Assembly (NCBI GenBank): GCA_964566945.1
Contig: CAZMKE010000007.1
Location: forward strand, 175,743 to 239,742
Source: an uncultured Verrucomicrobiota bacterium
GTDB taxonomy: Bacteria; Verrucomicrobiota; Verrucomicrobiia; Limisphaerales; SXQI01
Length of the DNA stretch: 64,000 nucleotides
Reading direction: 5' to 3'
The notes below the pieces were generated by a model. That model was not told the DNA's origin. It searched no databases and saw only the letters and a list, made by a program, of their open reading frames with translations. Below, piece after piece: positions 37,645 to 50,467 of this stretch; the stretch's first letter is position 1; each line of letters opens with the position of its first letter. A program made the translations under genes and the position numbers.

Positions 37645-39072
37645 CTAAGCGAGCAAGTCCTTGACGACATTCCCGGCAATATCGGTGAGGCGGTAATCAC
37701 GGCCTTCAAAGCGGTAAGTCAGCTTCTCGTGATCGATGCCGAGGCAATGGAGCATCGTGGCGTGGAAGTCATGCACGTGAACCGGGTTTTCGACAATGTT
37801 GTAGGCGTAGTCGTCGGTCCTGCCGTAGGTCAGGCCGGCTTTGATGCCGCCGCCAGCCATCCAGAGACTGAAGGCGCGGGGGTGATGATCCCGGCCGAAG
37901 CTTTCCTTTTTGATCTCGCCCTGGCTGTAAGTGGTGCGCCCGAATTCCCCGCCCCAGATGACCAGCGTGTCGTCCAGCATCCCGCGCTGTTTCAAATCCG
38001 TGATAAGGGCGGCGGAAGCCTGGTCGGTGATTTTGGCCTGACGGCGGATTTGGTTCGGCAGATCGCCGTGGTGATCCCAATCGCGGTGGCAGAGTTGGAT
38101 GAAACGAACGCCGCGTTCGGCGAGGCGGCGGGCGAGGAGGCAGTTGTTGGCGTAGGAGGCTTTGCCGGGCTCCGCGCCGTAAAGATCAAGCGTTTCCTTT
38201 GATTCTTTGGAAATGTCCATCAGTTCAGGCACGCTGGTTTGCATGCGGAACGCGAGCTCGTAGTTCTCGATATGGGTGGCAATTTCGGGATCGCCCAGCT
38301 GGCCGAGTTGAAGCCGGTTCAGCTCCTGCATGGAGTCGATCAGAGTGCGGCGGGTGGAGAGGCTCATCCCTTTCGGATTGGATACGTAGAGGACGGGGTC
38401 GCCTTGCGTGCGGAATTGGACGCCTTGATAATTTCCGGGGAGAAAGCCATTTCCCCAGTAGCGGGCCTGCAGCGGCTGGCCGCCGCCGCCGGAGAGGAGG
38501 ACGATGAAGGCCGGCAGGTTCTGGTTCTCACTGCCCAGGCCATAACTGATCCAGGAACCCATGGTGGGACGGCCCGGTTGCTGATGGCCGGTGCCGAAGT
38601 AAGTGACCGCGGGATCGTGGTTGATCGGTTCGGTGAACATCGACCGGATGATGGTGATGTCATCCGCGACCTGCGCCGTGTGGGGCAGCAGCTCCGACAA
38701 TTCCGCCCCGGAGTTTCCGTGTTTGGAAAATGAGAAGGGCGAGCCCACGCACAGGAGCTGCTTTTGCCCGCTGGTCATCCCGGTGATGCGCTGCCCCATG
38801 CGGATTGAGCCGGGCAGTTCCGTGCCGGTCAAGTCCTTCAACTTCGGCTTGTAATCGAAGAGGTCGATGTGGGACGGCGCGCCGGACATGAACATGTAAA
38901 TGACGCGCTTGGCCTTCGGCGCGAAGTGGAGATTGGGCAGGGCGCGCTGAGGAGCCCCGAATAGTTTCTGGCTGAGCAGCGATCCGAGCGCGACCGCGCC
39001 GAGGCTGGTCGTGCTGCGCTTGAGGAAAGTGCGCCGGTTCAGAACTTTGGCGATATCGTCACCGAGGTGCAT
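37645..39072 (-). CDS. DUF1501 domain protein (sulfatase-fold), Tat signal
   Basis: NRRTFLKRSTTSLGAVALG, MSGAPSHIDLFDYKP, WDHHGDL, GGEFGRT and the C-terminal LTYRFEGRDYRLTDI. Start set at ATG 39072, 2 nt after the upstream stop. Confidence 0.9.
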   Translation of the reverse strand: MHLGDDIAKVLNRRTFLKRSTTSLGAVALGSLLSQKLFGAPQRALPNLHFAPKAKRVIYMFMSGAPSHIDLFDYKPKLKDLTGTELPGSIRMGQRITGMTSGQKQLLCVGSPFSFSKHGNSGAELSELLPHTAQVADDITIIRSMFTEPINHDPAVTYFGTGHQQPGRPTMGSWISYGLGSENQNLPAFIVLLSGGGGQPLQARYWGNGFLPGNYQGVQFRTQGDPVLYVSNPKGMSLSTRRTLIDSMQELNRLQLGQLGDPEIATHIENYELAFRMQTSVPELMDISKESKETLDLYGAEPGKASYANNCLLARRLAERGVRFIQLCHRDWDHHGDLPNQIRRQAKITDQASAALITDLKQRGMLDDTLVIWGGEFGRTTYSQGEIKKESFGRDHHPRAFSLWMAGGGIKAGLTYGRTDDYAYNIVENPVHVHDFHATMLHCLGIDHEKLTYRFEGRDYRLTDIAGNVVKDLLA

Positions 39073-39074
39073 GG

Positions 39075-42000
39075 CTAATTGGAAATGGCTTCGTTGAGGT
39101 TCAGGAGGACGTTCGCCACGCAGGTGTAGGCGGCGAGTTCGGTTTTGCTGATGTCCGGCGGCAGATCGGATTCGCCGGTCTTGAGGAGGTCCTCGGCCCC
39201 TTCGCTGTTCTGAGCGTAAAGACTCTGCATTTCGCGGAGCGTGCGCAAGAGGATGGAAATCTCCTGGGAACTTGGGCGGCGCGCGAGAGTGGTTCGGAAG
39301 GCGAACACCAGGCGATCTTCCGGCTCCTTGCCGCCTTCGCGCAGCGTGCGCGCGGCGAAGGCCCGGGCGCATTCGAGATAAACGGGATCGTTCATCAGCA
39401 CGAACGATTGAAGCGGGGTGCTGGTGCGCGGGCGCTGGGCGGTGCAGACCTCGCGGCTGGGCGCGTCAAACGTGGCGAATGACGGATAGTGAACCGCGCG
39501 CTTCCAGTAAACATACATGCCCCGGCGGTAAAGGTCGGGACCGTGGCTTTGGTCATACTGCGTGTCGGTGACATCCCAGAGGCCGGCGGGCTGGTAAGGC
39601 TTCACGCTCGGGCCGCCGATCTTGCGATTCAGAAGGCCGCTGACGGCCAGAGCGTGGTCGCGAATGAACTCCGCCTCAAGGCGAAGCCGCGGGCCGCGCG
39701 TGAGCAGGCGGTTGTAAGGATCGCGTTCCAGCAGGGCAGGGGTGACGGCTGCGCCTTGGCGATAAGTGGCCGAGGTGACGATTTGGCGAACGAGAGCTTT
39801 GGTGTCCCACGGCTTCGCGGGCGCCCGCGAGACGGCGCGGGCTGCGGCTGGGTTGACATCGCCGTCGCGGAACTGGCAGGCCAGCCAGTCAAGCAGTTGG
39901 GGGTGGCTGGGCGGCTCGCTTTGGGAGCCAAAATCGTTGACCGTCTTGACCAGCCCGGTCCCGAAAAACATCGCCCAGTAGCGGTTGACTGTGACGCGGC
40001 TGGTGAGCGGATGTTCCTTGGACATCAGCCAGCGGGCAAGCCCGAGGCGGTTGCGCGGTTCGTCCGGCTTGAGCGCGGGCAGAAACGAGGGAACGTTAGC
40101 TGAGACCTTCTCGCTGCGCCGCTGGAAATCGCCGCGGACGAGAATGAATGTGTCCCGGGGCTTGTCCATTTCCCGCATGACCATGGTGTTCGGAATGCGC
40201 CGAAGAAGGTCGGCTTTGCGGCTGCGCGCCGCCGTCAGGGCCTCTTCAGCCGCCCGATAATCCGAGGCGTAGGTGGAGCGGTAGAGTTGGCGGAGATCCT
40301 CAAGTTCCGCGCCGGTGCGCCGGTCGGCGGGAATCGCGAGAATCGGGCCGTAACTCTGGAGTTCGAGGGCGAGAACCTCATCCTTGCTCAGCGCGCGTTC
40401 GTAGATGCGGATTTCATCCAGGAGGCCATTGAAGAACGCCGAGTTGGAGCGCGCCCCGATCCGGAGCGGGGTGTTCGCAGCGATCGATCCGGAAAGGGTG
40501 TCTTTCTGGATTTCCAGGTCCTGCTCAACTCCGTTGACGTAAATCTGGACGCCGGACGCTTTGCTTGAGCCGTTGTAGGTGACAAATACATGCAGCCATG
40601 CGTCCTTGGGAAAAGTCTTGCGGGTCCGCAATTTGATCGCGTTATCCGGCCATTGATTTACCAGGTGAGCTTCAAAAGCGCCATCGGTCAGGAGCAAGTC
40701 GACGCCGCGGGATTTATCCGCCTCATCCATGCGGCTCAGGACTGCGCCGTGGTTGCCGCGAGAGTAGACCCAGCCACCGTAAGAGAAGGCATTCTGGCGG
40801 TCGAACGTGATCGGGTTGCCGGCATCAATGAACTGCTTTTGCCCATTTAAATCGAGTGCTTTGCCGGGGCGTCCCGGGGCGAACGAAGATGATCCTTCCA
40901 GTTTGGTTTCGTGGCGCGCGCCGCCAGCGTCCAGATAGGCCGCGCCGTCGTCGAAGGAAAAGCTGACGGCCAGCCCATTCGTGGGGGCGGCAGCCAGGCT
41001 TTTCCCCCCAACCTCTTTTTCCCAGCGCGCCTGGGCGGCGGGAAGTTCGCGGGCCCGGTCGTTCACGGTCCGTTCGGCGTCGTCCACCGCGCGATCGAGT
41101 TCCACCAGATCAGTTGCTTGCTCGGGGGAGGGAACGGAGAGGCGCGGGAATGGGTTTTCCACGCGGGTTCCGTCGAGCCCCTTTTCCGGAATGTTGTGGA
41201 AGAAAGAGTAGAGTTGGTAGAAATCCCGCTGGGTGAGGGGATCGTACTTGTGGTCATGGCATTCCGCGCACCCGGTGGTGGTGCCGAGCCAGACCGCTCC
41301 GGTGGTGTTAACGCGATCCACCTGGTATTTGCTCAAATATTCGTCGGGATCCGCTCCGCCTTCATCGTTGGTCATCACGTTGCGATGAAAGCCGGTGGCG
41401 ATTCGCTGGGCGACCGTTGGATTGGGCAAAAGATCACCCGCAAGCTGCTCGATGGTGAACTGGTCGAACGGCATGTTCTTGTTGAAGGCATTGATCACCC
41501 AATCCCGCCAGGGCCACATGAACCGCAGGCCGTCGAAATGGTAGCCGCTGGTATCCGCATAGCGGGCCAGATCGAGCCAGTTTTGCGCCATGCGTTCCCC
41601 GTACTGCTCCGCGTCCAGCAGGCGGTCGACCACCTTTTCGTAGGCGTCCGGGCTGTTATCAGCGAGGAAAGCGTCAATTTCTTCAACGGTGGGCGGCAGT
41701 CCGGTGAGGTCGAGGGTGGCGCGGCGGATCAGCGCGGGTTTGTCGGCTTCTGGTGAAGGCTTGAAACCTTCCTTTTCCAGGCGAGCCAGGACGAAGCGGT
41801 CGATCTCGTTTTTCGGCCAGCTCTTGTCCTGCACCTCCGGAAGGGCCGGTCGTTCGGGTGCAACGTAGGCCCAGTGTTCCTTCCATTGGGCTCCGGATTC
41901 GACCCAGCGCCTGAGCAGATCGATTTGGGAGGCGTTGAGTTTCTTTTTAAAGTCAGGCGGGGGCATTTTCTCATCGGGATCGGAAGAAAGGATGCGAGCA

Positions 42001-42302
42001 ACGAGCGCGCTTTCGTCCGCTTTGCCGGCCACGACGGCTTTCTTGCCGGACTTAAGTTCGCGAAAAGCGCTTTCTTTGCGATCCAGCCGGAGGCCGGCCT
42101 TGCGTTGGTGTTCGTCCGGTCCGTGGCAGGCGTAGCAATTGTCCGACAGGATCGGACGGATCTGCTTGTCAAAATCGATGGCGCCTGAATCGGCGGCGTC
42201 GGCGCTGAAACACAGCGCCAGCCCCGCGAGGGCCGCGGCGATTCGAAGTAACGAAGCGATGGGCATCCCGGAAAATCTGCCAGAAGAGGCGAGGGGGTTC
42301 AA
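39075..42302 (-). CDS. PSCyt1 (planctomycete cytochrome c) / DUF1549 / LamG-like / DUF1553 multidomain protein
   Basis: Haem-binding CYACHGPDEHQRKAGLRLD. Also TLDLTGLPPT, WLDLARYADTSG and GCAECHDHKYDPLTQRDFY. It has a central concanavalin/LamG-like block (WLHVFVTYNGS, LDEIRIYERAL) and a DUF1553-like C-terminus. Confidence 0.9.
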   Translation of the reverse strand: MNPLASSGRFSGMPIASLLRIAAALAGLALCFSADAADSGAIDFDKQIRPILSDNCYACHGPDEHQRKAGLRLDRKESAFRELKSGKKAVVAGKADESALVARILSSDPDEKMPPPDFKKKLNASQIDLLRRWVESGAQWKEHWAYVAPERPALPEVQDKSWPKNEIDRFVLARLEKEGFKPSPEADKPALIRRATLDLTGLPPTVEEIDAFLADNSPDAYEKVVDRLLDAEQYGERMAQNWLDLARYADTSGYHFDGLRFMWPWRDWVINAFNKNMPFDQFTIEQLAGDLLPNPTVAQRIATGFHRNVMTNDEGGADPDEYLSKYQVDRVNTTGAVWLGTTTGCAECHDHKYDPLTQRDFYQLYSFFHNIPEKGLDGTRVENPFPRLSVPSPEQATDLVELDRAVDDAERTVNDRARELPAAQARWEKEVGGKSLAAAPTNGLAVSFSFDDGAAYLDAGGARHETKLEGSSSFAPGRPGKALDLNGQKQFIDAGNPITFDRQNAFSYGGWVYSRGNHGAVLSRMDEADKSRGVDLLLTDGAFEAHLVNQWPDNAIKLRTRKTFPKDAWLHVFVTYNGSSKASGVQIYVNGVEQDLEIQKDTLSGSIAANTPLRIGARSNSAFFNGLLDEIRIYERALSKDEVLALELQSYGPILAIPADRRTGAELEDLRQLYRSTYASDYRAAEEALTAARSRKADLLRRIPNTMVMREMDKPRDTFILVRGDFQRRSEKVSANVPSFLPALKPDEPRNRLGLARWLMSKEHPLTSRVTVNRYWAMFFGTGLVKTVNDFGSQSEPPSHPQLLDWLACQFRDGDVNPAAARAVSRAPAKPWDTKALVRQIVTSATYRQGAAVTPALLERDPYNRLLTRGPRLRLEAEFIRDHALAVSGLLNRKIGGPSVKPYQPAGLWDVTDTQYDQSHGPDLYRRGMYVYWKRAVHYPSFATFDAPSREVCTAQRPRTSTPLQSFVLMNDPVYLECARAFAARTLREGGKEPEDRLVFAFRTTLARRPSSQEISILLRTLREMQSLYAQNSEGAEDLLKTGESDLPPDISKTELAAYTCVANVLLNLNEAISN

Positions 42303-42351: not shown

Positions 42352-42870
42352 TCAGAGAGAGGGATACAGGCAGATTTCGTGGCGCCGACGGCCCGGGAGT
42401 TGGAAAAGGAACTGTAGAGCGGGTGATCTTTTTTCGTGGCCGCGAATCACGTGAATCGCAAGAAGCCGCCGCTTAAAGGGGAATTGCACGCGATTGAACT
42501 CCTGTTGGGAGATTGAGTGCTTTTCGTGCCGAAGGCAGAGGGCGAAGCGATATGCGTCTTCGACGCTGCGCGAGGTCCAACAGGTTTCGGCGTAATGCTC
42601 GAAGAACGGCCAACCGCCGTTTTCCAGGGCGGAGCAGGTGAGGGGAAGATGCGAACGAGCCGCCTCGAAACGCTTGCGCACGAGCACGCGCGCCTGGGCG
42701 TGCAAATCGTCGGGCGCGAGTTGACGGAAAGCTCCGAGGTCGGAGTCGCGCAACCGTAATTGCGAGGCCACGAGGCCGGGCGACTGGACAAAGGCCCGCC
42801 GGAGTGAAGGGTCAGTCAGGAGCCGGCCCAGAGCGGTGAGCAAATCAATTGAGGTCGCGGATTCGTTCAA
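42352..42870 (-). CDS. Small partner protein of the DUF692 enzyme (family not recognised)
   Basis: 172-aa ORF directly downstream of the DUF692 gene. A TTG start at 42870 overlaps the DUF692 3' end by 26 nt. An alternative TTG at 42843 lies 1 nt after the DUF692 stop. It occupies the position where MNIO partner proteins (MbnC/TglI/BufC-type) are normally encoded. Confidence 0.5.
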   Translation of the reverse strand: MNESATSIDLLTALGRLLTDPSLRRAFVQSPGLVASQLRLRDSDLGAFRQLAPDDLHAQARVLVRKRFEAARSHLPLTCSALENGGWPFFEHYAETCWTSRSVEDAYRFALCLRHEKHSISQQEFNRVQFPFKRRLLAIHVIRGHEKRSPALQFLFQLPGRRRHEICLYPSL

Positions 42871-43624
42871 GCTTTTCCACTTCCGCAGCCCATTCCTTGC
42901 GGCTGGGAAAGTTGGTGTCGCGTTCCAGGATGATGGCTTCGACCGGCGCGTGGCGGGCGATGAAGGAGGCGAGAGTGATCAATTCCTCCTGAATCGGTTC
43001 TCCGTGGCTGTCTCCCAGGCGATCGCCTGGCTCGTAGCCGACGATATGCAATTGCCGGATGAGAGAAAGATCGAGTTGCTGCACCCAATCGATCGGGTCG
43101 AAGCGATGGTTCCTGCTATTGATAAACAGGTTGGTGACGTCGAGCAGGAGTCCGCAGCCAGCCCGCGCGCAGATTTGGTTAAGAAATTCGGTCTCGGGCC
43201 ATTCCCCCGGAATTCTGAGGTGAGAAGAGATGTTCTCCAGCAGAAGTGGCCGGGAGAAGCGGTCCATCAACTCGCGGGCGTGATCCGCAATAATCCGCGC
43301 GTTCTCCGCGGTCGGCGCGACGGGGTTGAGATGGCCGAGATCCAATTCGGAGGTGCGAGTGAAGGCCACGTGTTCGCTGACCCACTGGGGTTGGGCGGCC
43401 TCGACCACCCGGGCAAACTGCTGCAAGTGATCCGGATCGAGCGGGCCGGGAGTCCCGAGGCTGCTTCCGAGGCCATGAACGGAGAGGGTAAAGCTTTTTG
43501 CGAGGGTCCGCAGGGTTTGTTCTCCGCGGGTAAAAAAATGTTCGGCAGTAATTTCGAGACAGTCGAGCGAACCTCCCAGAAGCCACGGCTCCAACGGACT
43601 CCGATAACCTGCGCCGATGAGCAT
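42845..43624 (-). CDS. DUF692 family protein (multinuclear non-heme iron oxidase, MbnB/TglH-like TIM barrel)
   Basis: MLIGAGYRSPL... has the typical DUF692 start. Also LEITAEHFF, SVHGLGSSLGT, WVSEHVAFT, LLLENIS, GLLLDVTNLF, QLHIVGY and ILERD. Its ATG overlaps the upstream stop (TGATG). Confidence 0.85.
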   Translation of the reverse strand: MLIGAGYRSPLEPWLLGGSLDCLEITAEHFFTRGEQTLRTLAKSFTLSVHGLGSSLGTPGPLDPDHLQQFARVVEAAQPQWVSEHVAFTRTSELDLGHLNPVAPTAENARIIADHARELMDRFSRPLLLENISSHLRIPGEWPETEFLNQICARAGCGLLLDVTNLFINSRNHRFDPIDWVQQLDLSLIRQLHIVGYEPGDRLGDSHGEPIQEELITLASFIARHAPVEAIILERDTNFPSRKEWAAEVEKLERIRDLN

Positions 43625-44040
43625 CAGGAGCCTCCGCAACCCCCGCACCCACCCCCACCACCGCAGCCTCCCCCGCCTCCGCCGCTACAGCTGGAAGAAC
43701 TGCAGGATGAACCCGATCCGCCGGACGCCAGATGCTCCGCGCGCAACAGAAACGCAAGACTCCCTGCGATCATCATAAAAAAGAGGATGCCCCATTTCGT
43801 CATGCCGTGGCTCGATCCGACCGTGTAGCGGGCCGCGCCGAGGAGTTCATAAGCCAGCAAACCAGCTCCGGTGACGAAAGGGTTGTCGTGGCCGGCTTTG
43901 CGCAACCCGAGCACGGAAAGAAAAGTCAGGACAAACCAAGCAAGGTAGAGCGCAAGAAAATCGGGGCCGTTCATCGTCTCGAGGAAGCCGAAGGGGTCGA
44001 TCTCCGCGAACAGGCAGGGCGAAGGGAGGGCCAGGTTCAT
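43624..44040 (-). CDS. TIGR04222-like small membrane protein with Cys/Gly/Ser-rich C-terminal tail
   Basis: N-terminus IDPFGFLETMNGPDFLALYLAWFVL plus about 3 TM helices, which matches my recollection of the TIGR04222 domain. The C-terminal 33 aa are SGGSGSSCSSSSCSGGGGGGCGGGGGCGGCGGS. Its ATG at 44040 overlaps the upstream stop (TGATG). Confidence 0.75.
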   Translation of the reverse strand: MNLALPSPCLFAEIDPFGFLETMNGPDFLALYLAWFVLTFLSVLGLRKAGHDNPFVTGAGLLAYELLGAARYTVGSSHGMTKWGILFFMMIAGSLAFLLRAEHLASGGSGSSCSSSSCSGGGGGGCGGGGGCGGCGGS

Positions 44041-44792
44041 CACTCAGCCTGCCAATGGGTTTCGATCCAGGCGACCCCGCGATCGAGCAGCTGAAAGAGC
44101 CGGCTGTGCAGGTCGGTTGTCTCCGCGTCCGACCAGGCGCCCGGAGTTCGCTGGAGGTCCAGCAAAGCGCGGAGGGTTTCTCCTTCCAGGCCCAATTCCC
44201 GTTCGAGAATCGGAATGCGCTCTTCAAAGGGCGTGGGCAGGGAGATCTGCTGCAGGCGGAGGACTTCGGAGAGGTTGACAAACAGGCCGGGAAGATTGCG
44301 AAGAACGAACCGCTGATAGCCCGGGTTGCGGCCGCGAGTGACAAACGCGTGAACGAGTCGAAGCCGGAGGTTGCGAATCGCCTGTTCACACAGAAACCGA
44401 TCCACTTTCGGGTCGACGTGAAAATTCACAAAGGGGTCCGCCCCGAGGAGAACGCGATAGTTGCGCCGGATGCTGGCGAACTTGGTCGCGAAAGCGCGGG
44501 CGCTCCGCTCGAAACCCGGCCAGCCAAGAATGAAAGGTTCGATCGTGGGGGCGGATTCCAGGATGGAGGCGATCTGGTGGTGTGATTCCGGAGTCGAGCG
44601 ATCAAGAACGAGCAGAAGATTGAGATCTGAAAATCCCTCGACCAGATTTCCCCGGACCGCGCTGCCATAGAGGCAGCAGGAATAGAGGTTTTTCCCCAAG
44701 CGCTCACCCAGCGCATGGACGGTTTCATCCAGCATTTTTTGGAATCTGGGGCTCACTGGGTAGACGATTTGGGAGGAAATGAGGGGCGTCAA
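44040..44792 (-). CDS. Nucleotidyltransferase-domain protein (Pol-beta-like NTase plus helical C-terminal domain)
   Basis: LYSCCLYGSAVRGNLVEGFSDLNLLLVL fits the GS-x9-12-D.D minimal NTase motif. The helical C-terminal half of about 130 aa gives a kanamycin-NTase-like layout. Confidence 0.7.
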   Translation of the reverse strand: MTPLISSQIVYPVSPRFQKMLDETVHALGERLGKNLYSCCLYGSAVRGNLVEGFSDLNLLLVLDRSTPESHHQIASILESAPTIEPFILGWPGFERSARAFATKFASIRRNYRVLLGADPFVNFHVDPKVDRFLCEQAIRNLRLRLVHAFVTRGRNPGYQRFVLRNLPGLFVNLSEVLRLQQISLPTPFEERIPILERELGLEGETLRALLDLQRTPGAWSDAETTDLHSRLFQLLDRGVAWIETHWQAE

Positions 44793-44843: not shown

Positions 44844-45500
44844 GTGATCAAGGTAACGTTTTTTACGGAGGTGACCTCTTCCTGGTGTTATTGGGCGGAA
44901 CCGGCGTGGGCGGAGATCAAGGCCCGCTACGCCGATCGGGCGGAGTTTCATTGGAAGATTGCGTTGCTGGACGCGAAATCTCTCCCTGCATCGGCCGAAC
45001 AGCTGGCCTGGTTTTATCGCCGGAGCGGAACGCTGGTGCGCTCGCCCTTTATGCTCAACACCGGGTGGTACGAGCCGGGAGTGACGGAATACCTGGCCGC
45101 CAACGTCGTCGCCGAAGCCGCGAAGGACCTGGGGGTGACAGATGACAAAGTGCGTCTCGCCATCAGCGATGCCGCTTTGCGGGAGGGCAAGAAGGTGACG
45201 CACTGGGATGCGGTCGTGGCGATTGCGGCAGAAGCGGCCGCCTTGAAGCGAGCCACTTTGAAAGCCTTGGCGCAACGGCCGGAAATTGAAAAGCGGGTGC
45301 GGGCTTCGACGGCGGAATTCCATGCGTTGCAAGTCAGCCAGCGGCCGACGTTTGTGATCGAAAACGGGATTGGGGATAAAGCAGTATTGTCCGGGACCTG
45401 GGTAGCGGCTCCCCTCGCCAGTGTGATCGAGTCGATGATCGCTGATGAGGCCGCTTATGCCTCTTGGAAGTCTCACGCTGGCGAGCCGCCGCGGCAATAA
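44844..45500 (+). CDS. DsbA-family thioredoxin-fold protein (FrnE/HCCA-isomerase-like)
   Basis: IKVTFFTEVTSSWCYWAEPAW is an N-terminal beta-alpha unit with a single-Cys SxxC-type site at the CxxC position. GTG start. It is divergent from the NTase operon across a 51-bp spacer. Confidence 0.65.
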   Translation: MIKVTFFTEVTSSWCYWAEPAWAEIKARYADRAEFHWKIALLDAKSLPASAEQLAWFYRRSGTLVRSPFMLNTGWYEPGVTEYLAANVVAEAAKDLGVTDDKVRLAISDAALREGKKVTHWDAVVAIAAEAAALKRATLKALAQRPEIEKRVRASTAEFHALQVSQRPTFVIENGIGDKAVLSGTWVAAPLASVIESMIADEAAYASWKSHAGEPPRQ

Positions 45501-45565
45501 CGAGCGATCATGTGGCGTCCCCGTTTTTACTTTACTCTGAGGGAGCGCTCGGAACAGTTTTCAAT

Positions 45566-45907
45566 ATGAATCCGCCGGAGATTAACCCACCGGTCATCGA
45601 ACCACCGCCGCCGCCGCCGTCCGTCCCTTTTCGCTGGGGGCTTTTCCTGGCGGCGATATTTCTGCCGACGCTCTTGACAATTCTGGCGTCGGCGGCCGGA
45701 GGCAAAGACCTCGCGCCCCCTGTCGCTTTTATTGGCGGGGGGCTTTCGGGGATCGTTGGAGGAATCATGGTGGGACGCCGGTTTGGGAATAGCGATACCG
45801 GGAAGATCGGTATGAGCCTGGTTTTCGTGATCGTGTTCAGCGTCGCGTGCGTGACGATGAACTGCTTCGGCTGCCTGGCCGGAGGCTACAAGATGGACTT
45901 CAAATAA
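45566..45907 (+). CDS. Small Pro-rich/TM membrane protein
   Basis: MNPPEINPPVIEPPPPPPSVPF followed by 3 hydrophobic helices. The C-terminal segment is CVTMNCFGCLAGG. Confidence 0.45.
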   Translation: MNPPEINPPVIEPPPPPPSVPFRWGLFLAAIFLPTLLTILASAAGGKDLAPPVAFIGGGLSGIVGGIMVGRRFGNSDTGKIGMSLVFVIVFSVACVTMNCFGCLAGGYKMDFK

Positions 45908-45928: not shown

Positions 45929-47332
45929 GTGAGCAGCCTTTTTGATCTGCGAGGCGCCGCGGCAGCGCCGGATTCACGCCGAAAGGATTCGGCGGAAGCG
46001 CCTTTATTCATCGACACGCTGCTCAAGCGCACGACCTCGCGCTGCCCGGTTTGCCATGCGGCTTGTCCGGCGGAGGTTTGGAAGACCGGGGGCATTCCGG
46101 CGAAAGTCCTGCTGCGCCGCACTTGCCGCGAGCACGGCGTGCAGGAGGCGTGCATCGCTTCAGACGCCCGGTTTTATTGGCTCTCGCGGGGCCGGGACGA
46201 AAACGCCTGCTCCGCGCAGGGTTCCTGTTGTTCTGCTGAGGGCTCGAACGCGGGGACGCTGGGGCGGAACGCTGATCCAGGGGAGGCATTGGGAATTCAG
46301 GAGAAGCTCTCGACTTGCCTGGCGCTAATAGAGATCGTCCGTTCCTGCAATCTGGCCTGCCCCACGTGCTACGCGGATTCACCCCGGCGAGCCGAGGTGG
46401 ATGCGGCGCCGCTGGAGGGTCTGAAAAGCCGCATTCAGGGAGTGATTGATCGCAAAGGCAAAATCGAGATTCTCCAGCTCTCTGGGGGCGAGCCAACGTT
46501 GCATCCGGAATTTTTTGATCTGTTGCGCTGGCTGCATGGCAACCCCGGCGTCGATTACGTTTTGCTGAACACCAATGGCGTGCGGATCGCTCAGGATGCA
46601 GCGTTCGCGGACGAACTCGCGCGGACCTTTCGCTACGGCAAATTCCAGCTTTATCTCCAGTTTGACGGGCCGCAGGAGGCGGAGCAACACGCGCTGCGTG
46701 GGGCGGACCTGAGAGCGCTCCGCGTTCGCTGCCTGGAGCGCTGCCGGCAGATCAAGCTCCCGGTGACACTGGCGATGACGGTGACAGCGGGCAACCTCGA
46801 TTTTGTCTGGCAGACGATCGAGTTCGGGCTTGGCTGGCCGAATGTGCGCGGCGCGGCGTTTCAGCCCGCTTTTGGGAGCGGACGAACTTCCGGGGGCGCG
46901 AATCGGCGGCTGAACACCGCGGATGTTCTGCTCGCCGCGGTGCAACAATCGGGCGGGGCCTTGCGCTGCGAGGATTTTACGCCCCTGCCGTGCGGCGACC
47001 CGAATTGCGCGGTGATCGGTTATCTCCTGAAGGTCGGCGGGCAGGTGCGGTCCGTCAGCGACTTTATCGACTTCCGCAACGTGCAGGGATTTCTTGGAAC
47101 AAAAGTGCGGTACCAGCTGGAAGATTTGCTCCGATGCGGCTGCGAATCCGAGCCGTTGGGCCGGTTGCTGAAGAAGTTTGAATTGGATGAGTCACACACC
47201 TTCCGTCTGTTCATCAAGCCGTTCATGGACGCGTGGAGCTGGGATGATGATCGAATCGACCGCTGCTGCACGCACGTGATTCGCCCAGACGGAAGGCTGG
47301 ACTCGTTCTGCCGTTACTATTCCGGGTTCTGA
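45929..47332 (+). CDS. Radical SAM enzyme with N-terminal zinc-ribbon (MJ0619/Tes-like architecture)
   Basis: N-terminal CPVCHAACPAEV...LRRTCREHG. Radical SAM core VRSCNLACPTCYA. Also LQLSGGEPTLHPE and YLQFDG. The C-terminal FMDAWSWDDDRIDRCCTHVIRPDGRLDSFCRYY completes the architecture. Confidence 0.8.
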   Translation: MSSLFDLRGAAAAPDSRRKDSAEAPLFIDTLLKRTTSRCPVCHAACPAEVWKTGGIPAKVLLRRTCREHGVQEACIASDARFYWLSRGRDENACSAQGSCCSAEGSNAGTLGRNADPGEALGIQEKLSTCLALIEIVRSCNLACPTCYADSPRRAEVDAAPLEGLKSRIQGVIDRKGKIEILQLSGGEPTLHPEFFDLLRWLHGNPGVDYVLLNTNGVRIAQDAAFADELARTFRYGKFQLYLQFDGPQEAEQHALRGADLRALRVRCLERCRQIKLPVTLAMTVTAGNLDFVWQTIEFGLGWPNVRGAAFQPAFGSGRTSGGANRRLNTADVLLAAVQQSGGALRCEDFTPLPCGDPNCAVIGYLLKVGGQVRSVSDFIDFRNVQGFLGTKVRYQLEDLLRCGCESEPLGRLLKKFELDESHTFRLFIKPFMDAWSWDDDRIDRCCTHVIRPDGRLDSFCRYYSGF

Positions 47333-47349: not shown

Positions 47350-48483
47350 TTAACCACGCATTTGATCCGGGTCGAGACCCACCGTCCGGCACCAATCTCC
47401 GTACGCAAATGGGGAAATCTCCGACGGCTTGATTTCGCTGCGGCCGCCCCAAAAGACGTTGGTGTAAGAGAATCCGATGCCGCATTTCTGCAGGTGATCA
47501 TCAATGGCGGCCTTGTGCGCGAGCACCAGGTCTTTGTCGGTTCCGTGGGCCACAGCCATGATGTTCACATTGCGGAATTCTGGTCCGCCCTCCCGCCAGT
47601 AGGCATGCGTAAGGATGTGATGGCGGCCAACCTCGCAACCGGCTTCCAGTTCGCGGCCGGGGGGAACCGCCCAATGAAAGAGGGCGTTGAATCGTGTGAC
47701 TCGCTCGCCATCGGCCAATGGCTTGACGTGCTCGAGGAAGGTCGAAAAGCGGCCAACCACCTTGCGTTGGTTCAAATCCTCGGCCACTTCAAAGAAGGTT
47801 TGCAGGGGCACGTTCGCTTCGGCGGCCCGGGCGGCCCAAATGCCGGGCGTCAGTTCGGCGGGCTCAAATTCCCGTTTGATGGCCATCAGAACGCGCCACT
47901 CGAGTTCGTTCAGGGAAACTACGTTCACGTCCATGGCTTCGGCCGGTCCGTCCGACTTGCTGCCCGGCTCCATGCCGCGGCGGCGGACGTGCCCGACCCC
48001 GAGAACGAACAGGCGCTTGGCGGGCATGATCCGGAAATGGTCCGCGCCCACGCGCTTCCGTAGAAACTCGCAATGCTTCTGCATCGAGAATCCCTGCGGG
48101 ACTTTGAGAGTTGTCCAAAGTTTGTAGCTGGCTCCGGGCGACGCGGGGTCGGCCGAGCGAATGACGACGTGTCCGGAAAAGGGATCCTGCTGAAACAGAA
48201 AGTCGAAGGCGGCATCAAGTCTATCCGTGGGAACCTGCCAGGCCACGAGAGCGCCTGGGGAGAGGTTGGTGGCCATGAGCGTCTGACGCACCCGCCGGAT
48301 CGCGCCGGCGCGCAGCATGGCTTGAATCCGTTCGATCACCGTTTCGAGAGGGACGCCGGACCGGAGGGAAATCTCACCGAGGGGATCTCGTTGGAACCCC
48401 TGCACTTTATCCTCGGAAATCGCCAGAATCCGGGCATTCACCGGATCGGTAATGGCGGTCGGAATTGCTGCGCTCACGCTCAT
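47350..48483 (-). CDS. Fused double Lrp/AsnC-like protein, siroheme decarboxylase (AhbA/AhbB, NirDL)-like
   Basis: Two tandem modules. The first contains GAIRRVRQTLMATNLSPGALVAWQVP...FSGHVVIR...YKLWTTLKV, which parallels the NirD/L pattern G.IRR...VAW.VP...VSH.Y.R...NLF.MVH. Start at ATG 48483. Confidence 0.55.
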   Translation of the reverse strand: MSVSAAIPTAITDPVNARILAISEDKVQGFQRDPLGEISLRSGVPLETVIERIQAMLRAGAIRRVRQTLMATNLSPGALVAWQVPTDRLDAAFDFLFQQDPFSGHVVIRSADPASPGASYKLWTTLKVPQGFSMQKHCEFLRKRVGADHFRIMPAKRLFVLGVGHVRRRGMEPGSKSDGPAEAMDVNVVSLNELEWRVLMAIKREFEPAELTPGIWAARAAEANVPLQTFFEVAEDLNQRKVVGRFSTFLEHVKPLADGERVTRFNALFHWAVPPGRELEAGCEVGRHHILTHAYWREGGPEFRNVNIMAVAHGTDKDLVLAHKAAIDDHLQKCGIGFSYTNVFWGGRSEIKPSEISPFAYGDWCRTVGLDPDQMRG

Positions 48484-48631
48484 TGAAGGGCCGAATATAG
48501 CCGCAGGCCGGGGGAATGCGTAATGAAATCGATTCTGCGCCGATCCTGCTGGACGGGTGGTTGGCCGCACGTGGTTGCTTTCCCGGTTTGATTTGGCGGC
48601 TGTTTTTTTGCTATACCACCGCCTGCAAATT

Positions 48632-50467
48632 ATGAACCCGCCTTTTGCCTATTTTCGGCAGGCCCTTTTTGGGCTGTTTCTCCTTTGGTCTGCCGCGTTT
48701 CCGGGCTGCTCCGCCGCGGCGAATCTGGTCCTGTGGGACACTTGGACGCCCATCACGGATGCAGGTCGCTTAAACAAAGAGGAATGGCGCGTTGTCCCAA
48801 CGGACCTGTTCAAGCTGGAGGCGGATCCGCTGAAGTCGAGCTCGGACCCGGGGTATTATGGCCGGGAGTATTCTTTCAAGGGGGATTTGGCGGTCGAGAA
48901 TCGGAATTACACCGTGATTTTTGCCGGGGCGCAGGGGAAGTTGCTTTTGTACGCCAAGACTGCGGGCGCCTCTGTGTCCGGCGACTCGCCGCTCGGAGAA
49001 AAAATCGGGGAGTTGGCCCCGCTTTCAGCGCGGGGACCGATTCGTCAATTCAGCCTCTGGCGCAATTCCGGGGATGAGATCGCCGGGGAGGCCTACTTCA
49101 GCAATCGAGAGGGTGTCGTCCAGCCGCTGCGATTTGTTTTTGGAAAGAACGAGATCATCGAGTTCAAGCCGCATGAAACGTTGGGTGGATTGAGCGTGCG
49201 GGCGGCGCTGGATTTTGCGGTGGTTCCAAGTTTTGTCGGGGACGATCTGATTTTTGGCGCGATGGAAGGATTGGAGGCCGATACCCTGACCCTGCCGGCG
49301 GAGAACATGCTGATGGCGCTGCTGCGGGGCGGGAATCAGCAGTTGGTGCTGACCTGGCCGCGAGAGAAGGAGACCCCGAAGCTGAAGCTGGCGGACGAGA
49401 AGGAAGGCAAGCGAGCGCTGGCGGCGATTGAAGTTGAGACGCGTGGGCAGTCTCTGTTTATCGCGCCCCAATCCGCGCCTGGGATCTGGCATCGGGAAGC
49501 GTTGAGCGCCGCGTATTTGGAGAAGGCGGTCGCCAGTTCCTGGAAACGTCCATTTCCGGCGCGATGGCAGACCCAGTTGATGGAGGCGGGTGTGAGGACG
49601 CGCTTCGGCTTTCACGATGGCCCGGGAACGGTGTGGCGCGGGGTGCCCGGCAGCTACAACTATCCAGTCTGGTTTGAGGGCGAGACGGCGTTTTACCACT
49701 TGAGCAAGAAGGTCCCGCCGAAGGGAGAATCCATCATTTACTTTGTGGAGGGGCAGGAAACGCCTGCGACCGTCTTGACGCCGGCTGATATTCTCAAGGC
49801 CACCTTGGGACGGGCTGAAACCGAGGAACTAGTCGATCTTTCAGGCCGGAAATTGCGCACCCATCACCGCCGGGGCGGGGCGGGCGTCAGGCGCGCCTGC
49901 ACCTGCGGCTGCACGGAGGCAATCCAGGCCATTTTTGAGGCCGGTGAAGAAACCGCGCGCAAAGAAGAGATCCGCGAAGCGATTGGCGACATGATCTATT
50001 TCGTGCAGGCCCACGTTCAGCGGATCGACGAGTATCGCCGTTTCGCCGGTGACATCGCGCAGTATTTGCAGGCGCGGGCGGCGGCCGCCCCAGAATTGAA
50101 GCCCTGCCTGGCGGAGGCGCAGCAGATCGCGGAGCAGATCCCGCAGGAATATGAGGTGCAGAAAGAGAATATGAAATCGCTCGCTTACGCGGATGAATTG
50201 TCCGCGCGCACCCTGCAGTTGGCCGAAAAGAAGGAAACGACCAACCTGGCCGCTTATATGGAATTGCTCAAAGCCTGGCGCGGGATGGGCGGTTCCCAGG
50301 ATTACGTAGTCGCGCAATGCCATGCTCTTACGCGCAAGCTCTTTCAAGAAGCCAGCTACGGGTGTGTTACTCAGGCGAAAGCTCTGGAAGTTGCCCTCGA
50401 AGTGAGAAGGCGGTGCCGGGCAATTCTGCGAAATGCGGATGGCTATGAGATTTGGCCGAACTATTAA
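48632..50467 (+). CDS. Secreted hypothetical protein (611 aa)
   Basis: Signal peptide LFGLFLLWSAAFPGCSAAA and a long uninterrupted ORF. I recognise no family. Contains a RRACTCGCTEA Cys cluster. Confidence 0.6.
   Translation: MNPPFAYFRQALFGLFLLWSAAFPGCSAAANLVLWDTWTPITDAGRLNKEEWRVVPTDLFKLEADPLKSSSDPGYYGREYSFKGDLAVENRNYTVIFAGAQGKLLLYAKTAGASVSGDSPLGEKIGELAPLSARGPIRQFSLWRNSGDEIAGEAYFSNREGVVQPLRFVFGKNEIIEFKPHETLGGLSVRAALDFAVVPSFVGDDLIFGAMEGLEADTLTLPAENMLMALLRGGNQQLVLTWPREKETPKLKLADEKEGKRALAAIEVETRGQSLFIAPQSAPGIWHREALSAAYLEKAVASSWKRPFPARWQTQLMEAGVRTRFGFHDGPGTVWRGVPGSYNYPVWFEGETAFYHLSKKVPPKGESIIYFVEGQETPATVLTPADILKATLGRAETEELVDLSGRKLRTHHRRGGAGVRRACTCGCTEAIQAIFEAGEETARKEEIREAIGDMIYFVQAHVQRIDEYRRFAGDIAQYLQARAAAAPELKPCLAEAQQIAEQIPQEYEVQKENMKSLAYADELSARTLQLAEKKETTNLAAYMELLKAWRGMGGSQDYVVAQCHALTRKLFQEASYGCVTQAKALEVALEVRRRCRAILRNADGYEIWPNY

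Follow-up and report, generated by a model that had tools for sequence, protein, structure and literature searches.

Does a small membrane protein that ends in nothing but Ser, Gly and Cys serve as the substrate of the MNIO encoded directly behind it, and on which side of the membrane would its product lie? This question is raised by a four-gene cassette in a 64,000-nucleotide stretch of contig CAZMKE010000007.1 (assembly GCA_964566945.1) from an uncultured Verrucomicrobiota bacterium, the whole of which we refer to as the window. MNIOs are yielding a rapidly growing number of unusual peptide chemistries and of molecules with which bacteria handle copper. The MNIO substrates characterised are soluble or lipidated peptides and proteins; the class of membrane proteins with Ser/Gly/Cys tails is a predicted one.

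Results

The tailed protein is encoded in a conserved four-gene cassette

The gene of the tailed membrane protein (138 aa plus stop codon, ATG start; 43624..44040, minus strand), for which the open reading frame, an independent gene call and homologues all speak, is the second of four minus-strand genes, in the order NTase-like protein, tailed membrane protein, MNIO and a 172-aa partner. At both ends the gene shares a TGATG with its neighbour: its ATG overlaps the stop codon of the NTase-like gene, and its stop codon overlaps the ATG of the MNIO gene. An independent gene caller gave the same model of 231, 138, 259 and 172 aa (locus L051). Of 50 related loci, which come from Verrucomicrobiota and Planctomycetota and in a few cases from Gammaproteobacteria, about 40 have the cassette, and in most of them the MNIO gene is preceded by the tailed ORF. 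Cultured bacteria with the cassette include Verrucomicrobia bacterium LW23 (locus L037) and the Opitutus lineage (L015).

The genes of the cassette are packed too closely for an additional small precursor gene to fit between them, and no other Cys-containing candidate is among them. Among the 28 loci whose surroundings were compared, no neighbour gene recurred beyond the four, and neither protease genes nor genes for export or TonB-type uptake were conserved beside the cassette. No copper-related genes linked to the cassette were found. Genes for DsbA-like, radical-SAM (TrsS/Tes-like), AhbA/B-like and PSCyt/DUF1501 proteins were near the cassette in 0–2 of the 50 loci, and we dismissed them as parts of the system because they are not conserved there.

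The tail is real coding sequence

Translation of ORF 43624-44040 (minus strand) ends in SGGSGSSCSSSSCSGGGGGGCGGGGGCGGCGGS followed by the stop codon, which agrees letter for letter with the hand translation in an earlier, sequence-only reading of this DNA. This tail, the putative modified 'core' region (residues 106-138; 43627..43725, minus strand), makes up the last 33 residues and consists exclusively of Gly, Ser and Cys; the span 43624-43725 given before takes in the stop codon at 43624-43626. Five of the six Cys of the protein lie in the tail, at gaps of 4, 7, 5 and 2 residues and mostly in a G-C-G or S-C-S context, and the final 54 nt are three copies of an imperfect 18-nt (six-codon) repeat. 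The tail is disordered in the AlphaFold prediction. The plus-strand 'poly-Pro' ORF 42836-43828, previously taken for a shadow ORF, is indeed the shadow of the tailed gene and of the MNIO gene, the latter identified on the minus strand by its Pfam match (E=1.6e-65).

We considered whether the tail could be a spurious ORF end, or the product of a frameshifted or misassembled G-rich tract, as might be suspected from one assembly (X3) that breaks within this tract and from two database homologues (P0005 and P0018) that give the tail in a different frame. However, a contig from an independent assembly, with 99.25% DNA identity, has the identical tail, and four activated-sludge runs showed zero indels in the tailed gene. 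Nor is the run expected by chance: the tail is the sole G/S/C-only run of at least 10 residues in all six frames of the whole window, and the longest such run in 100 first-order Markov simulations was 11 residues. Frame and CGGCGG end are also kept in more than 70 homologues, although the identity of the core is just 30–57%. Within the gene, all five differences seen in one strain (X6) are synonymous third-position changes, a signature of purifying selection on the tailed gene. The artefact explanation is already refuted by this conservation, and we give it next to no weight. Conservation of the tail and integrity of its frame, on which the sequence-only reading had made its proposal depend, thus both held, the tail being kept across 74 homologues and the frame being intact in independent assemblies and in the four runs.

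The end of the tail is the most conserved part of its pattern

An exhaustive HMMER search gave 68 homologues of the tailed protein. In a word-indexed homologue search the N-terminal 112 aa found no relatives, and a profile version of that search found 3 proteins; the family came up in the exhaustive search. In all homologues compared (n=74) the tail is in frame. An alignment of the kind that the sequence-only reading had proposed revealed that the terminal CGGCGG(S/G/D) is near-invariant, with the last Cys pair spaced CGGC in nearly all 74, while the number of Cys per tail ranges from 3 to 9 and the spacing further upstream varies. Tails in the family are 44% Gly, 20% Ser and 12.5% Cys, with 260 Cys in a G-C-G context among the 74 homologues, and are nearly devoid of positive charges. 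The C-terminal ends seen in the family are GGS, GG, GGG, GGD, GS and GD. Long forms of the protein have an additional domain at the N-terminus, which is of the double-CxxC (zinc-ribbon) or ankyrin type or is strongly basic, and behind this domain there is almost always one extra TM.

The MNIO is related to BufB and HvfB and is accompanied by a candidate partner

The MNIO gene (259 aa, DUF692/MbnB-TglH-ChrH family; 42845..43624, minus strand) encodes a protein without a signal peptide that belongs to Pfam PF05114 (MbnB_TglH_ChrH; E=1.6e-65, 221 bits against a cutoff of 25) and has 3bww, TglH and MbnB as its relatives in the PDB. Residues H50, H85, E130, D162, N165, H193, D205, H207 and E234 correspond to H54, H90, E133, D163, N166, H192, D208, H210 and E239 of MbnB, so that, by alignment, the metal site is complete, with all nine MbnB ligands kept. 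The nearest NCBIfam models were BufB (NF050167; 192.4 bits against a cutoff of 310) and HvfB (NF003818; 161.2 against 360). By these scores, which fall below both equivalog cutoffs, the enzyme is a subfamily distinct from, yet related to, BufB/HvfB. BufB and HvfB both produce Cu-binding 5-thiooxazoles (PMC11626156; bioRxiv 10.64898/2026.07.17.739211).

Downstream of the MNIO gene, in at least 37 of the 50 loci and with divergent copies in addition, lies the gene of a candidate MNIO partner (172 aa; 42352..42870, minus strand), whose start overlaps the end of the MNIO gene by 26 nt. A domain search found no DUF2063 match in it, so it fits the description of a PME-type 2 protein, whose gene immediately follows that of the MNIO and which has no DUF2063 signature (PMC12452194). 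There is a weak precomputed match to PF26136 (SCO6045_C), and its first 55 aa bear a weak resemblance to NHLP-type domains. The AlphaFold model, predicted from a 7-sequence alignment (pLDDT 88), has a helical domain followed by a helix and a three-stranded sheet. The highest-probability broad-coverage Foldseek match of this model was MbnC (7dz9_C; probability 0.60, TM 0.38), which at E=0.38 is not significant; NGO1945 (3dee) and TglI (8hi7), to which PME-type 2 partners are expected to be related in structure by a helical domain, with or without an RRE-like one (PMC12452194), were absent from the top 50 matches. No Cys is among the invariant residues of the partner.

The first gene of the cassette (231 aa, also in the L051 call; 44040..44735, minus strand, with an ORF that could reach 44792) is conserved in 39 of the 50 loci and encodes an accessory protein with a predicted NTase fold. 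Single-sequence searches of the PDB gave no matches for either this protein or the partner, and profile searches gave weak NTase N-domain and NHLP-like matches at most; the NTase matches span only the first ~60 residues, to which support for the fold is confined. PF01909 matches 10 of 17 members, and the protein of the window, at 16.5 bits against a cutoff of 21, falls outside Pol-beta-type membership. The motif is degenerate (G-S...D-L-N compared with the catalytic G[GS]...D-x-[DE]) and wholly lost in the planctomycete branch. The protein is probably a non-catalytic scaffold or recognition subunit. We rejected a ThiS/MoaD-like mechanism, in which it would adenylate the C-terminal Gly-Gly, because the C-terminus varies and the NTase motif is degenerate.

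The family is a variant of a predicted class of MNIO substrates

Antoine et al. (Microb Genom 2025, PMC12452194) proposed that TIGR04222 membrane proteins in which a Ser/Gly-rich C-terminal tail is interspersed with Cys may be MNIO substrates. The predicted substrate class has thus been known since 2025, and the present family is a variant of it. Like those proteins, the protein of the window is membrane-bound, lacks a Sec signal peptide and has a disordered Ser/Gly/Cys tail, and its gene adjoins that of an MNIO of the bufferin/oxazolin-like branch whose partner is no genuine DUF2063 member; both sets are predictions from sequence and context. The claim of the sequence-only reading that such a tail departs from the leader-core logic of the known MNIO substrates is therefore outdated, being preceded by the TIGR04222 tails (PMC12452194) as well as by DAG-RiPPs and MerC–bufferin fusions (PMC13056109; PMC12452194).

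The two sets also differ. The large extramembrane (periplasmic) domain of the TIGR04222 proteins is absent from the 138-aa protein, whose helices are joined by loops of 5–6 residues; TIGR04222 proteins are found in Actinomycetota, whereas the present family is mainly from Verrucomicrobiota and Planctomycetota; and the cassette starts with an NTase-like gene, of which PMC12452194 makes no mention ('nucleotidyltransferase' has 0 occurrences). The protein of the window did not match the TIGR04222 HMM even at E≤10. Sub-threshold matches were obtained for 6 of 46 family members (best E=0.013; P0020 at 14.2 bits), and by the curated threshold of 43 bits the family does not directly belong to TIGR04222. 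In these weak HMM matches the TM2-loop-TM3 hairpin maps to profile positions ~138-193, which suggests that the family may be a remote, minimal relative of TIGR04222. By description the protein also resembles the putative Adjamnio-I precursors (122–293 aa, 8–21 Cys, no signature, in the order precursor, MNIO, PME-type 2; PMC12452194, Table 2), with which it shares the length range, the gene order and the lack of a database signature; it has 6 Cys, however, and only the long zinc-ribbon forms of the family would fall in the range of 8–21.

We asked whether such a tail needs to be modified at all. It might be an intrinsic thiolate-rich tail, metallothionein-like or binding Fe-S or metal, with the MNIO acting elsewhere or having another role. 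One-third of the genomes with TIGR04222 genes are without any MNIO, and one-quarter of TIGR04222 proteins have no Cys near the C-terminus (PMC12452194); tails of this kind can thus occur where there is no MNIO. The weak NHLP-like N-terminus of the partner also leans this way. Several features of the cassette nevertheless argue against an unmodified tail: across phyla the tailed gene strictly keeps its place beside the MNIO gene and its stop/start overlap with it, the cassette offers the enzyme no alternative Cys-bearing candidate and no space for a small ORF, and the invariant residues of the partner include no Cys. In addition, the characterised members of the BufB/HvfB branch all modify Cys (PMC11626156). 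We therefore hold an unmodified tail to be improbable.

The side of the membrane depends on the middle helix

AlphaFold predicted three helices of 22–24 residues each with pLDDT >90, separated by the short loops. Helix 1 (TM1, residues 25-48; 43897..43968, minus strand) starts at the conserved G25-P26-x-F28-L29 and has the near-invariant R47 at its end; helix 2 (putative TM2, residues 54-77; 43810..43881, minus strand) contains the near-invariant E65, G68 and R71; helix 3 (TM3, residues 84-105; 43726..43791, minus strand) has a conserved G-x-x-x-G-M-H-K-W loop before it and R100 and a basic flank after it. A Foldseek search with the model of the membrane domain gave no match with E≤0.001. The protein had been called a polytopic membrane protein, and it is a membrane protein, but for 138 aa with three predicted TM helices the term overstates its size.

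Whether helix 2 spans the membrane decides on which side the tail lies. In the long forms, the single extra TM after the N-terminal domain implies that GPxFL is outside, and if the middle helix spans, this architecture would place the tail in the cytoplasm. The N-terminus would then lie outside, all three helices would cross the membrane, and the tail would be exposed to the cytoplasm beside the enzymes, in contrast to TIGR04222 tails, which are predicted to be periplasmic (PMC12452194). Helices 1 and 3 of the protein of the window are strongly hydrophobic and the middle helix is weaker. From the charge bias, neither a cytoplasmic nor a periplasmic tail is clearly to be preferred.

Alternatively, the core may span the membrane twice, with helix 2 at the cytoplasmic interface, and the tail may be modified in the cytoplasm and then translocated, so that the same substrate–enzyme pair would yield a periplasmic, membrane-anchored metal buffer. 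The periplasmic tails predicted by Antoine et al. (PMC12452194) would agree with this, as would bufferins, which are periplasmic and have a cytoplasmic MNIO (PMC11626156), the indecisive charge bias, and a tail so nearly free of positive charge that translocation is possible. Helix 2 of the window protein, with a maximum KD of 1.24 and its conserved E and R, also fits an interfacial position. In the family, however, the median maximum is 1.73, with KD ≥1.6 in 62% and ≥1.2 in 92% of members, and mean hydropathy exceeds +1 at 14 of 20 positions. Its polar and small residues (T57, G60, E65, G68, R71 and G75) form one narrow stripe, more typical of helix packing than of an amphipathic surface helix; helix 2 equals the flanking TMs in length and is held between very short loops; and the flank behind TM3 is consistently basic (mean 1.85 K+R). 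We thus consider a double span with a periplasmic tail unlikely, if still deserving serious attention.

A periplasmic tail would in any case not exclude modification by the MNIO, because bufferins act in the periplasm, which they reach by Sec export, while their MNIO has no signal peptide (PMC11626156). Topology, which the sequence-only reading had proposed as grounds for discarding the idea, is thus not a valid test of it.

Discussion

The tailed protein is most likely the membrane-tethered substrate of the MNIO, as it is encoded directly ahead of it. Our full reading, to which we give a little less than an even chance, is that of a leaderless RiPP-like substrate in which a three-helix membrane domain stands in the leader's place, the tail is cytoplasmic and the product stays tethered. 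The organisation differs from that of a canonical leader-core RiPP precursor, with the three-TM domain at the position of the leader and no protease or exporter.

In the proposed mechanism the three-helix domain would substitute for the leader peptide, and a cytoplasmic complex of MNIO and partner would oxidise the Cys of the tail to metal-binding heterocycles, most likely 5-thiooxazole. We favour 5-thiooxazole on two grounds, namely that BufB/HvfB are nearest to the enzyme and that G-C-G resembles the K-C-G of oxazolin repeats; as both equivalog cutoffs are missed, this is chemistry that we infer. As the cassette has neither protease nor exporter, the product would remain bound to the membrane and act there as a flexible chelator with several sites, probably for copper. 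That the tail sits on a membrane protein, as the sequence-only reading had it, is borne out by a conserved, coding and translationally coupled gene directly upstream of the MNIO gene; that the product is kept at the membrane is the simplest reading, since nothing else in the cassette is a candidate for the substrate gene and neither a protease nor an exporter is conserved in it.

The membrane domain might instead be a carrier or leader from which the modified tail is cleaved and released as a soluble, methanobactin-like metallophore. This would fit classical RiPP logic; the G-C-G and S-C-S contexts resemble methanobactin-type cores, and the tail starts after a fairly conserved juxtamembrane segment. 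The linker from TM3 to the first Cys, however, varies in length and sequence and shows no conserved cleavage motif, and the genes that cleavage, export and re-uptake would call for are not conserved at the 28 loci. Release of the tail therefore seems to us quite improbable.

The tethered substrate that we prefer has features in common with several known systems. Bufferins (BufA/BufB/BufC) and oxazolins (HvfA/HvfB/HvfC) have the nearest MNIO models, Cys targets, protein substrates and no dedicated protease or exporter, and oxazolins carry repeated short Cys-Gly motifs, as the present tail does. They differ in having Sec signal peptides, in being soluble in the periplasm and in their DUF2063 (PME-type 1) partners (PMC11626156; PMC12452194), whereas the present protein has no signal peptide, an integral anchor and a non-DUF2063 partner. 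DAG-RiPPs and MerC–bufferin fusions are also membrane-bound MNIO products (PMC13056109; PMC12452194), but the former are made by ChrH-type MNIOs and anchored by lipidation after export, and the latter hold a folded bufferin domain in the periplasm, compared with a dedicated three-TM anchor and a low-complexity tail here. With methanobactin (MbnA/MbnB/MbnC) the system shares an identical set of MNIO metal ligands, Cys flanked by small residues and, weakly, MbnC as the top broad-coverage structural match of the partner; the short leader-core peptide MbnA, in contrast, is cleaved and then secreted, and MbnB is distant from the present MNIO (E about 1e-6 to 1e-11).

A more specific proposal, possible though doubtful at present, is that the family represents a minimal 'in-membrane' class of MNIO substrates. 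The three-TM domain, with a buried conserved Glu-Arg pair, would act as the leader, and the tail would be converted on the cytoplasmic face to thiooxazole-type chelators that are never exported, serving as an intracellular membrane-tethered metal buffer or chaperone. A catalytically dead NTase-fold scaffold would assist and, as part of this proposal, would be a new link to MNIO systems.

The true extent of the class is underestimated, because curated models (TIGR04222, DUF2063) miss part of it. Within it the present family is the smallest and cleanest test case, with a 138-aa substrate, an overlapping four-gene cassette and a fixed CGGCGG end, in which modification of the tail, leaderless recognition and action of the product at the cytoplasmic face of the membrane can be addressed. 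If the proposal is true, these bacteria would use enzymes to build an intracellular metal buffer or chaperone that is tethered to the membrane.

Results

The 138-aa membrane protein encoded at 43624-44040 on the minus strand ends in 33 C-terminal residues, SGGSGSSCSSSSCSGGGGGGCGGGGGCGGCGGS, followed by the stop codon. A Cys/Gly/Ser tail at this place had been noted in the sequence-only reading; we confirmed it, and the 33 residues translated by hand there match the translation of the ORF exactly. No reading frame of the 64-kb window contains another run of ten or more Gly, Ser or Cys residues, and the longest such run arising by chance in 100 first-order Markov simulations was 11 residues. Its final 54 nt consist of three copies of an imperfect 18-nt repeat, i.e. 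three G5C-like hexapeptides. The 'poly-Pro' ORF of the plus strand, taken in the same reading for a shadow, is indeed the shadow of the tailed gene and the MNIO gene.

The tailed gene is tightly packed among its neighbours. Its ATG and the stop of the ORF upstream (231-250 aa) share a TGATG, as do its own stop and the ATG of the 259-aa MNIO gene (42845-43624, minus strand); the last 26 nt of the MNIO gene are shared with the beginning of a 172-aa ORF (42352-42870, minus strand). The cassette has no intergenic space for a separate small precursor. The same 231/138/259/172-aa model, with an identical tail, was produced by an independent gene caller on L051, a contig from another sequencing run with 99.25% DNA identity to the window. 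No indels were found in the tail across four assemblies aligned to the gene, and in one strain all five within-gene differences were synonymous, at third positions. The overlapping gene model, the independent gene call, the indel-free tail and the synonymous-only differences thus show that this ORF is a genuine gene and that purifying selection acts on it. The locus is present in activated-sludge metagenomes from two studies. In run X3 the assembly of the window strain breaks within the tail, and a second, unrelated 7.1-kb contig (record 3) matches the G-rich tail DNA only (window 43648-43680), which suggests that a similar Gly/Cys tail is encoded elsewhere in the community, by a different organism or by a paralogue.

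With the MNIO as a probe we collected 50 related loci from species-representative genomes, mostly of Verrucomicrobiota and Planctomycetota with a few Gammaproteobacteria; at most of them, the product of the ORF that runs up to the MNIO start has a homologous membrane core and, after it, a Gly/Ser/Cys tail. The 109 N-terminal residues, which are free of the repeats, were compared exhaustively by HMMER with 1.84 billion representative proteins; this returned 68 relatives, of which 27 reached E<=1e-10. Across 74 curated members the tail spans 31-71 residues, counting from the first one beyond TM3, and has 3-9 Cys (median 5); Gly makes up 44% of it, Ser 20% and Cys 12.5%, and 260 Cys of these members lie in a G-C-G context. 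Comparison of homologues had been proposed as a check in the sequence-only reading: judging by the near-constant CGGC spacing of the last Cys pair (nearly all of the 74) and the shared endings, most commonly GCGGCGGS, GGCGGCGG and GCGGCGGG, the C-terminal register is fixed, and the upstream Cys differ in number and spacing. Two homologues, P0005 and P0018, conserve the membrane core and carry the tail in another frame (Ala/Val/Glu-rich, ending in ...DWAWLSS), most simply through frameshift errors in the G-runs of metagenome assemblies. The in-frame 18-nt repeats could drive real variation in tail length.

The 259-aa enzyme matches Pfam PF05114 (MbnB/TglH/ChrH) at E=1.6e-65 and has no signal peptide. 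Among NCBIfam models it comes closest to BufB, the bufferin maturase, with 192 bits against a cutoff of 310, and to HvfB, with 161 bits against one of 360. Since both scores fall under the cutoffs, the enzyme belongs to a subfamily related to but distinct from BufB/HvfB. Alignment to solved MbnB structures and to the published ligand list (H54, H90, E133, D163, N166, H192, D208, H210 and E239; PMC9060507) showed that all nine metal ligands are kept, as H50, H85, E130, D162, N165, H193, D205, H207 and E234. Cu-binding 5-thiooxazoles are installed by BufB (PMC11626156) and, according to a 2026 preprint, by HvfB (bioRxiv 10.64898/2026.07.17.739211), from which we infer the chemistry of the tail.

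The first cassette gene (44040-44735, possibly to 44792, minus strand) is detectable in 39 of the 50 loci. The first ~60 residues of its product have a Pol-beta NTase fold. The catalytic motif reads G-S...D-[IL]-N in the family and G-S...D-L-N in the window, with the second carboxylate lost; in the planctomycete branch the motif is wholly degenerate. The invariant residues (G98, D100, E117, Q118, N122 and R126) sit in the helical half. On these sequence features the protein would be a non-catalytic accessory subunit.

The 172-aa partner occurs in at least 37 of the 50 loci. It has no DUF2063 match; one homologue is labelled 'hypothetical protein' by NCBI, and a weak precomputed assignment to PF26136 'SCO6045_C' exists. 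Its ~55 N-terminal residues (6-60) weakly resemble NHLP/Nif11-type leader-like helical domains, with matches to the Os1348 NHLP clan (E=5.8e-5), to Frankia_peptide, to a PDB chain of the nitrile-hydratase-alpha-like type and, in Foldseek, to fragments of SonA. In the AlphaFold model (pLDDT 88) a helical domain precedes a helix and a three-stranded sheet. The most probable Foldseek match of broad coverage, MbnC in the MbnABC complex, is suggestive but not significant (probability 0.60, TM 0.38, E=0.38).

None of the window's DsbA-like, radical-SAM, AhbA/B-like or PSCyt/DUF1501 neighbours is conserved with the cassette across the 50 loci, and clustering of 140 neighbour ORFs from 28 loci gave no recurrent family except divergent partner copies. 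The four genes thus form a module that stands by itself and includes no gene for a protease, an exporter or metal resistance.

Several of these neighbours have features of their own. The divergently oriented DsbA-like thioredoxin-fold protein (44844-45500, plus strand; PF01323, E=1.3e-10), found with the cassette in 0 of 50 loci, has no obvious signal peptide and a single Cys (SWCYW) at the expected CxxC site. A small unannotated membrane protein (45464-45907, plus) precedes the radical-SAM gene (45929-47332, plus), whose product has an HMPTM-type N-terminal zinc ribbon and is closest to TrsS (211 bits) and the tetraether lipid synthase Tes (158 bits), both under cutoff. It adjoins a fused AhbA/AhbB-like (siroheme decarboxylase-like) protein (47350-48570, minus); this group is retained in the 99%-identical L051, whereas other genomes show no link between it and the MNIO cassette. 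For the 636-aa ORF at 48557-50467 (plus), Pfam gave nothing at E<=0.001. At 37645-42302 (minus) lie a 1075-aa PSCyt1/PSCyt2/Laminin_G_3/PSD1 protein and, after it, a DUF1501 protein, a pair typical of Planctomycetota and Verrucomicrobiota that fits the verrucomicrobial origin of the window.

The membrane core has near-invariant residues (G25, P26, F28, L29, Y32, R47, D52, E65, G68, R71, G75, G79, M80, K82, M90, G93 and R100) and three hydrophobic stretches (28-46, 55-74 and 85-99). AlphaFold, with a 46-sequence alignment, predicts helices at 25-48, 54-77 and 84-105 with pLDDT above 90, joined by loops of 5-6 residues, and a disordered tail. Long members carry an additional N-terminal domain, which has a zinc-ribbon-like pair of CxxC motifs, ankyrin repeats or as many as 34 Lys/Arg and is followed in nearly every case by a single extra TM helix right before GPxFL. 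Zinc-ribbon and ankyrin domains are cytoplasmic, as are positively charged flanks under the positive-inside rule. With the added domain in the cytoplasm and one extra TM helix, GPxFL would lie outside, and three core TM helices would therefore return the tail to the cytoplasm, in agreement with the basic residues that flank TM3 on its C-terminal side. In the planctomycete loci L024, L029, L039, L041, L042 and L049, the ORF upstream of the MNIO encodes a variant of 317-384 aa; at the N-terminus it has zinc-ribbon-like CxxC pairs (one or two), and between the conserved hairpin/TM3 and the Gly/Cys tail it has two more hydrophobic segments. These two additional passes preserve parity and hence the side of the tail. 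If, however, helix 2 is interfacial and does not span the membrane, the tail would be periplasmic, the location predicted by Antoine et al. for TIGR04222 proteins (PMC12452194). The middle stretch, which includes the conserved E65 and R71, has 14 hydrophobic positions out of 20; in helix 2, 62% of members attain a hydropathy of 1.6 or more and 92% one of 1.2 or more, with a maximum of just 1.24 in the window protein. Among readings with a membrane-retained MNIO-substrate tail, we lean modestly towards the cytoplasmic over the periplasmic location. Either would be compatible with modification, since bufferins, whose MNIO is cytoplasmic, are nevertheless exported by Sec and function in the periplasm (PMC11626156).

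Discussion

A membrane-tethered MNIO substrate, the core idea of the sequence-only reading, is the best-supported reading, with function and chemistry inferred. That reading also set the tail apart from the leader-core logic of known MNIO substrates; the arrangement is not without parallel, because bioinformatic work published in 2025 had already described a class much like it. According to Antoine et al. (Microb Genom 2025; PMC12452194), TIGR04222 membrane proteins make up about 40% of the Cys-containing proteins that lack a signal peptide and are encoded ahead of an MNIO gene; these putative substrates are predicted to have unstructured C-terminal Ser/Gly-rich tails with interspersed Cys and are partnered by PME-type 2 rather than DUF2063 proteins. 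The TIGR04222 model does not recognise the window protein, yet it gives the commonest weak match among family members (6 of 46, with E=0.013 at best), and in two independent weak matches the TM2-loop-TM3 hairpin aligns to its positions ~138-193 of 229. Our family is therefore best described, from these alignments, as a remote, minimal TIGR04222 relative, lacking the large extramembrane domain of those proteins. It may be the unassigned adjamnio-I cluster (122-293 aa, order precursor-MNIO-PME-type 2; PMC12452194), although the window protein has six Cys in all, compared with 8-21 in the published description of adjamnio-I. Membrane-bound MNIO products have precedents in DAG-RiPPs (PMC13056109) and MerC-bufferin fusions (PMC12452194).

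What is new is a compact family that scores under the curated threshold and has its centre in Verrucomicrobiota and Planctomycetota, together with the fixed CGGCGG terminus of its tail, a conserved degenerate NTase-fold gene in the cassette, which has no mention in the 2025 survey (PMC12452194), and a topology argument that would place the tail on the cytoplasmic face.
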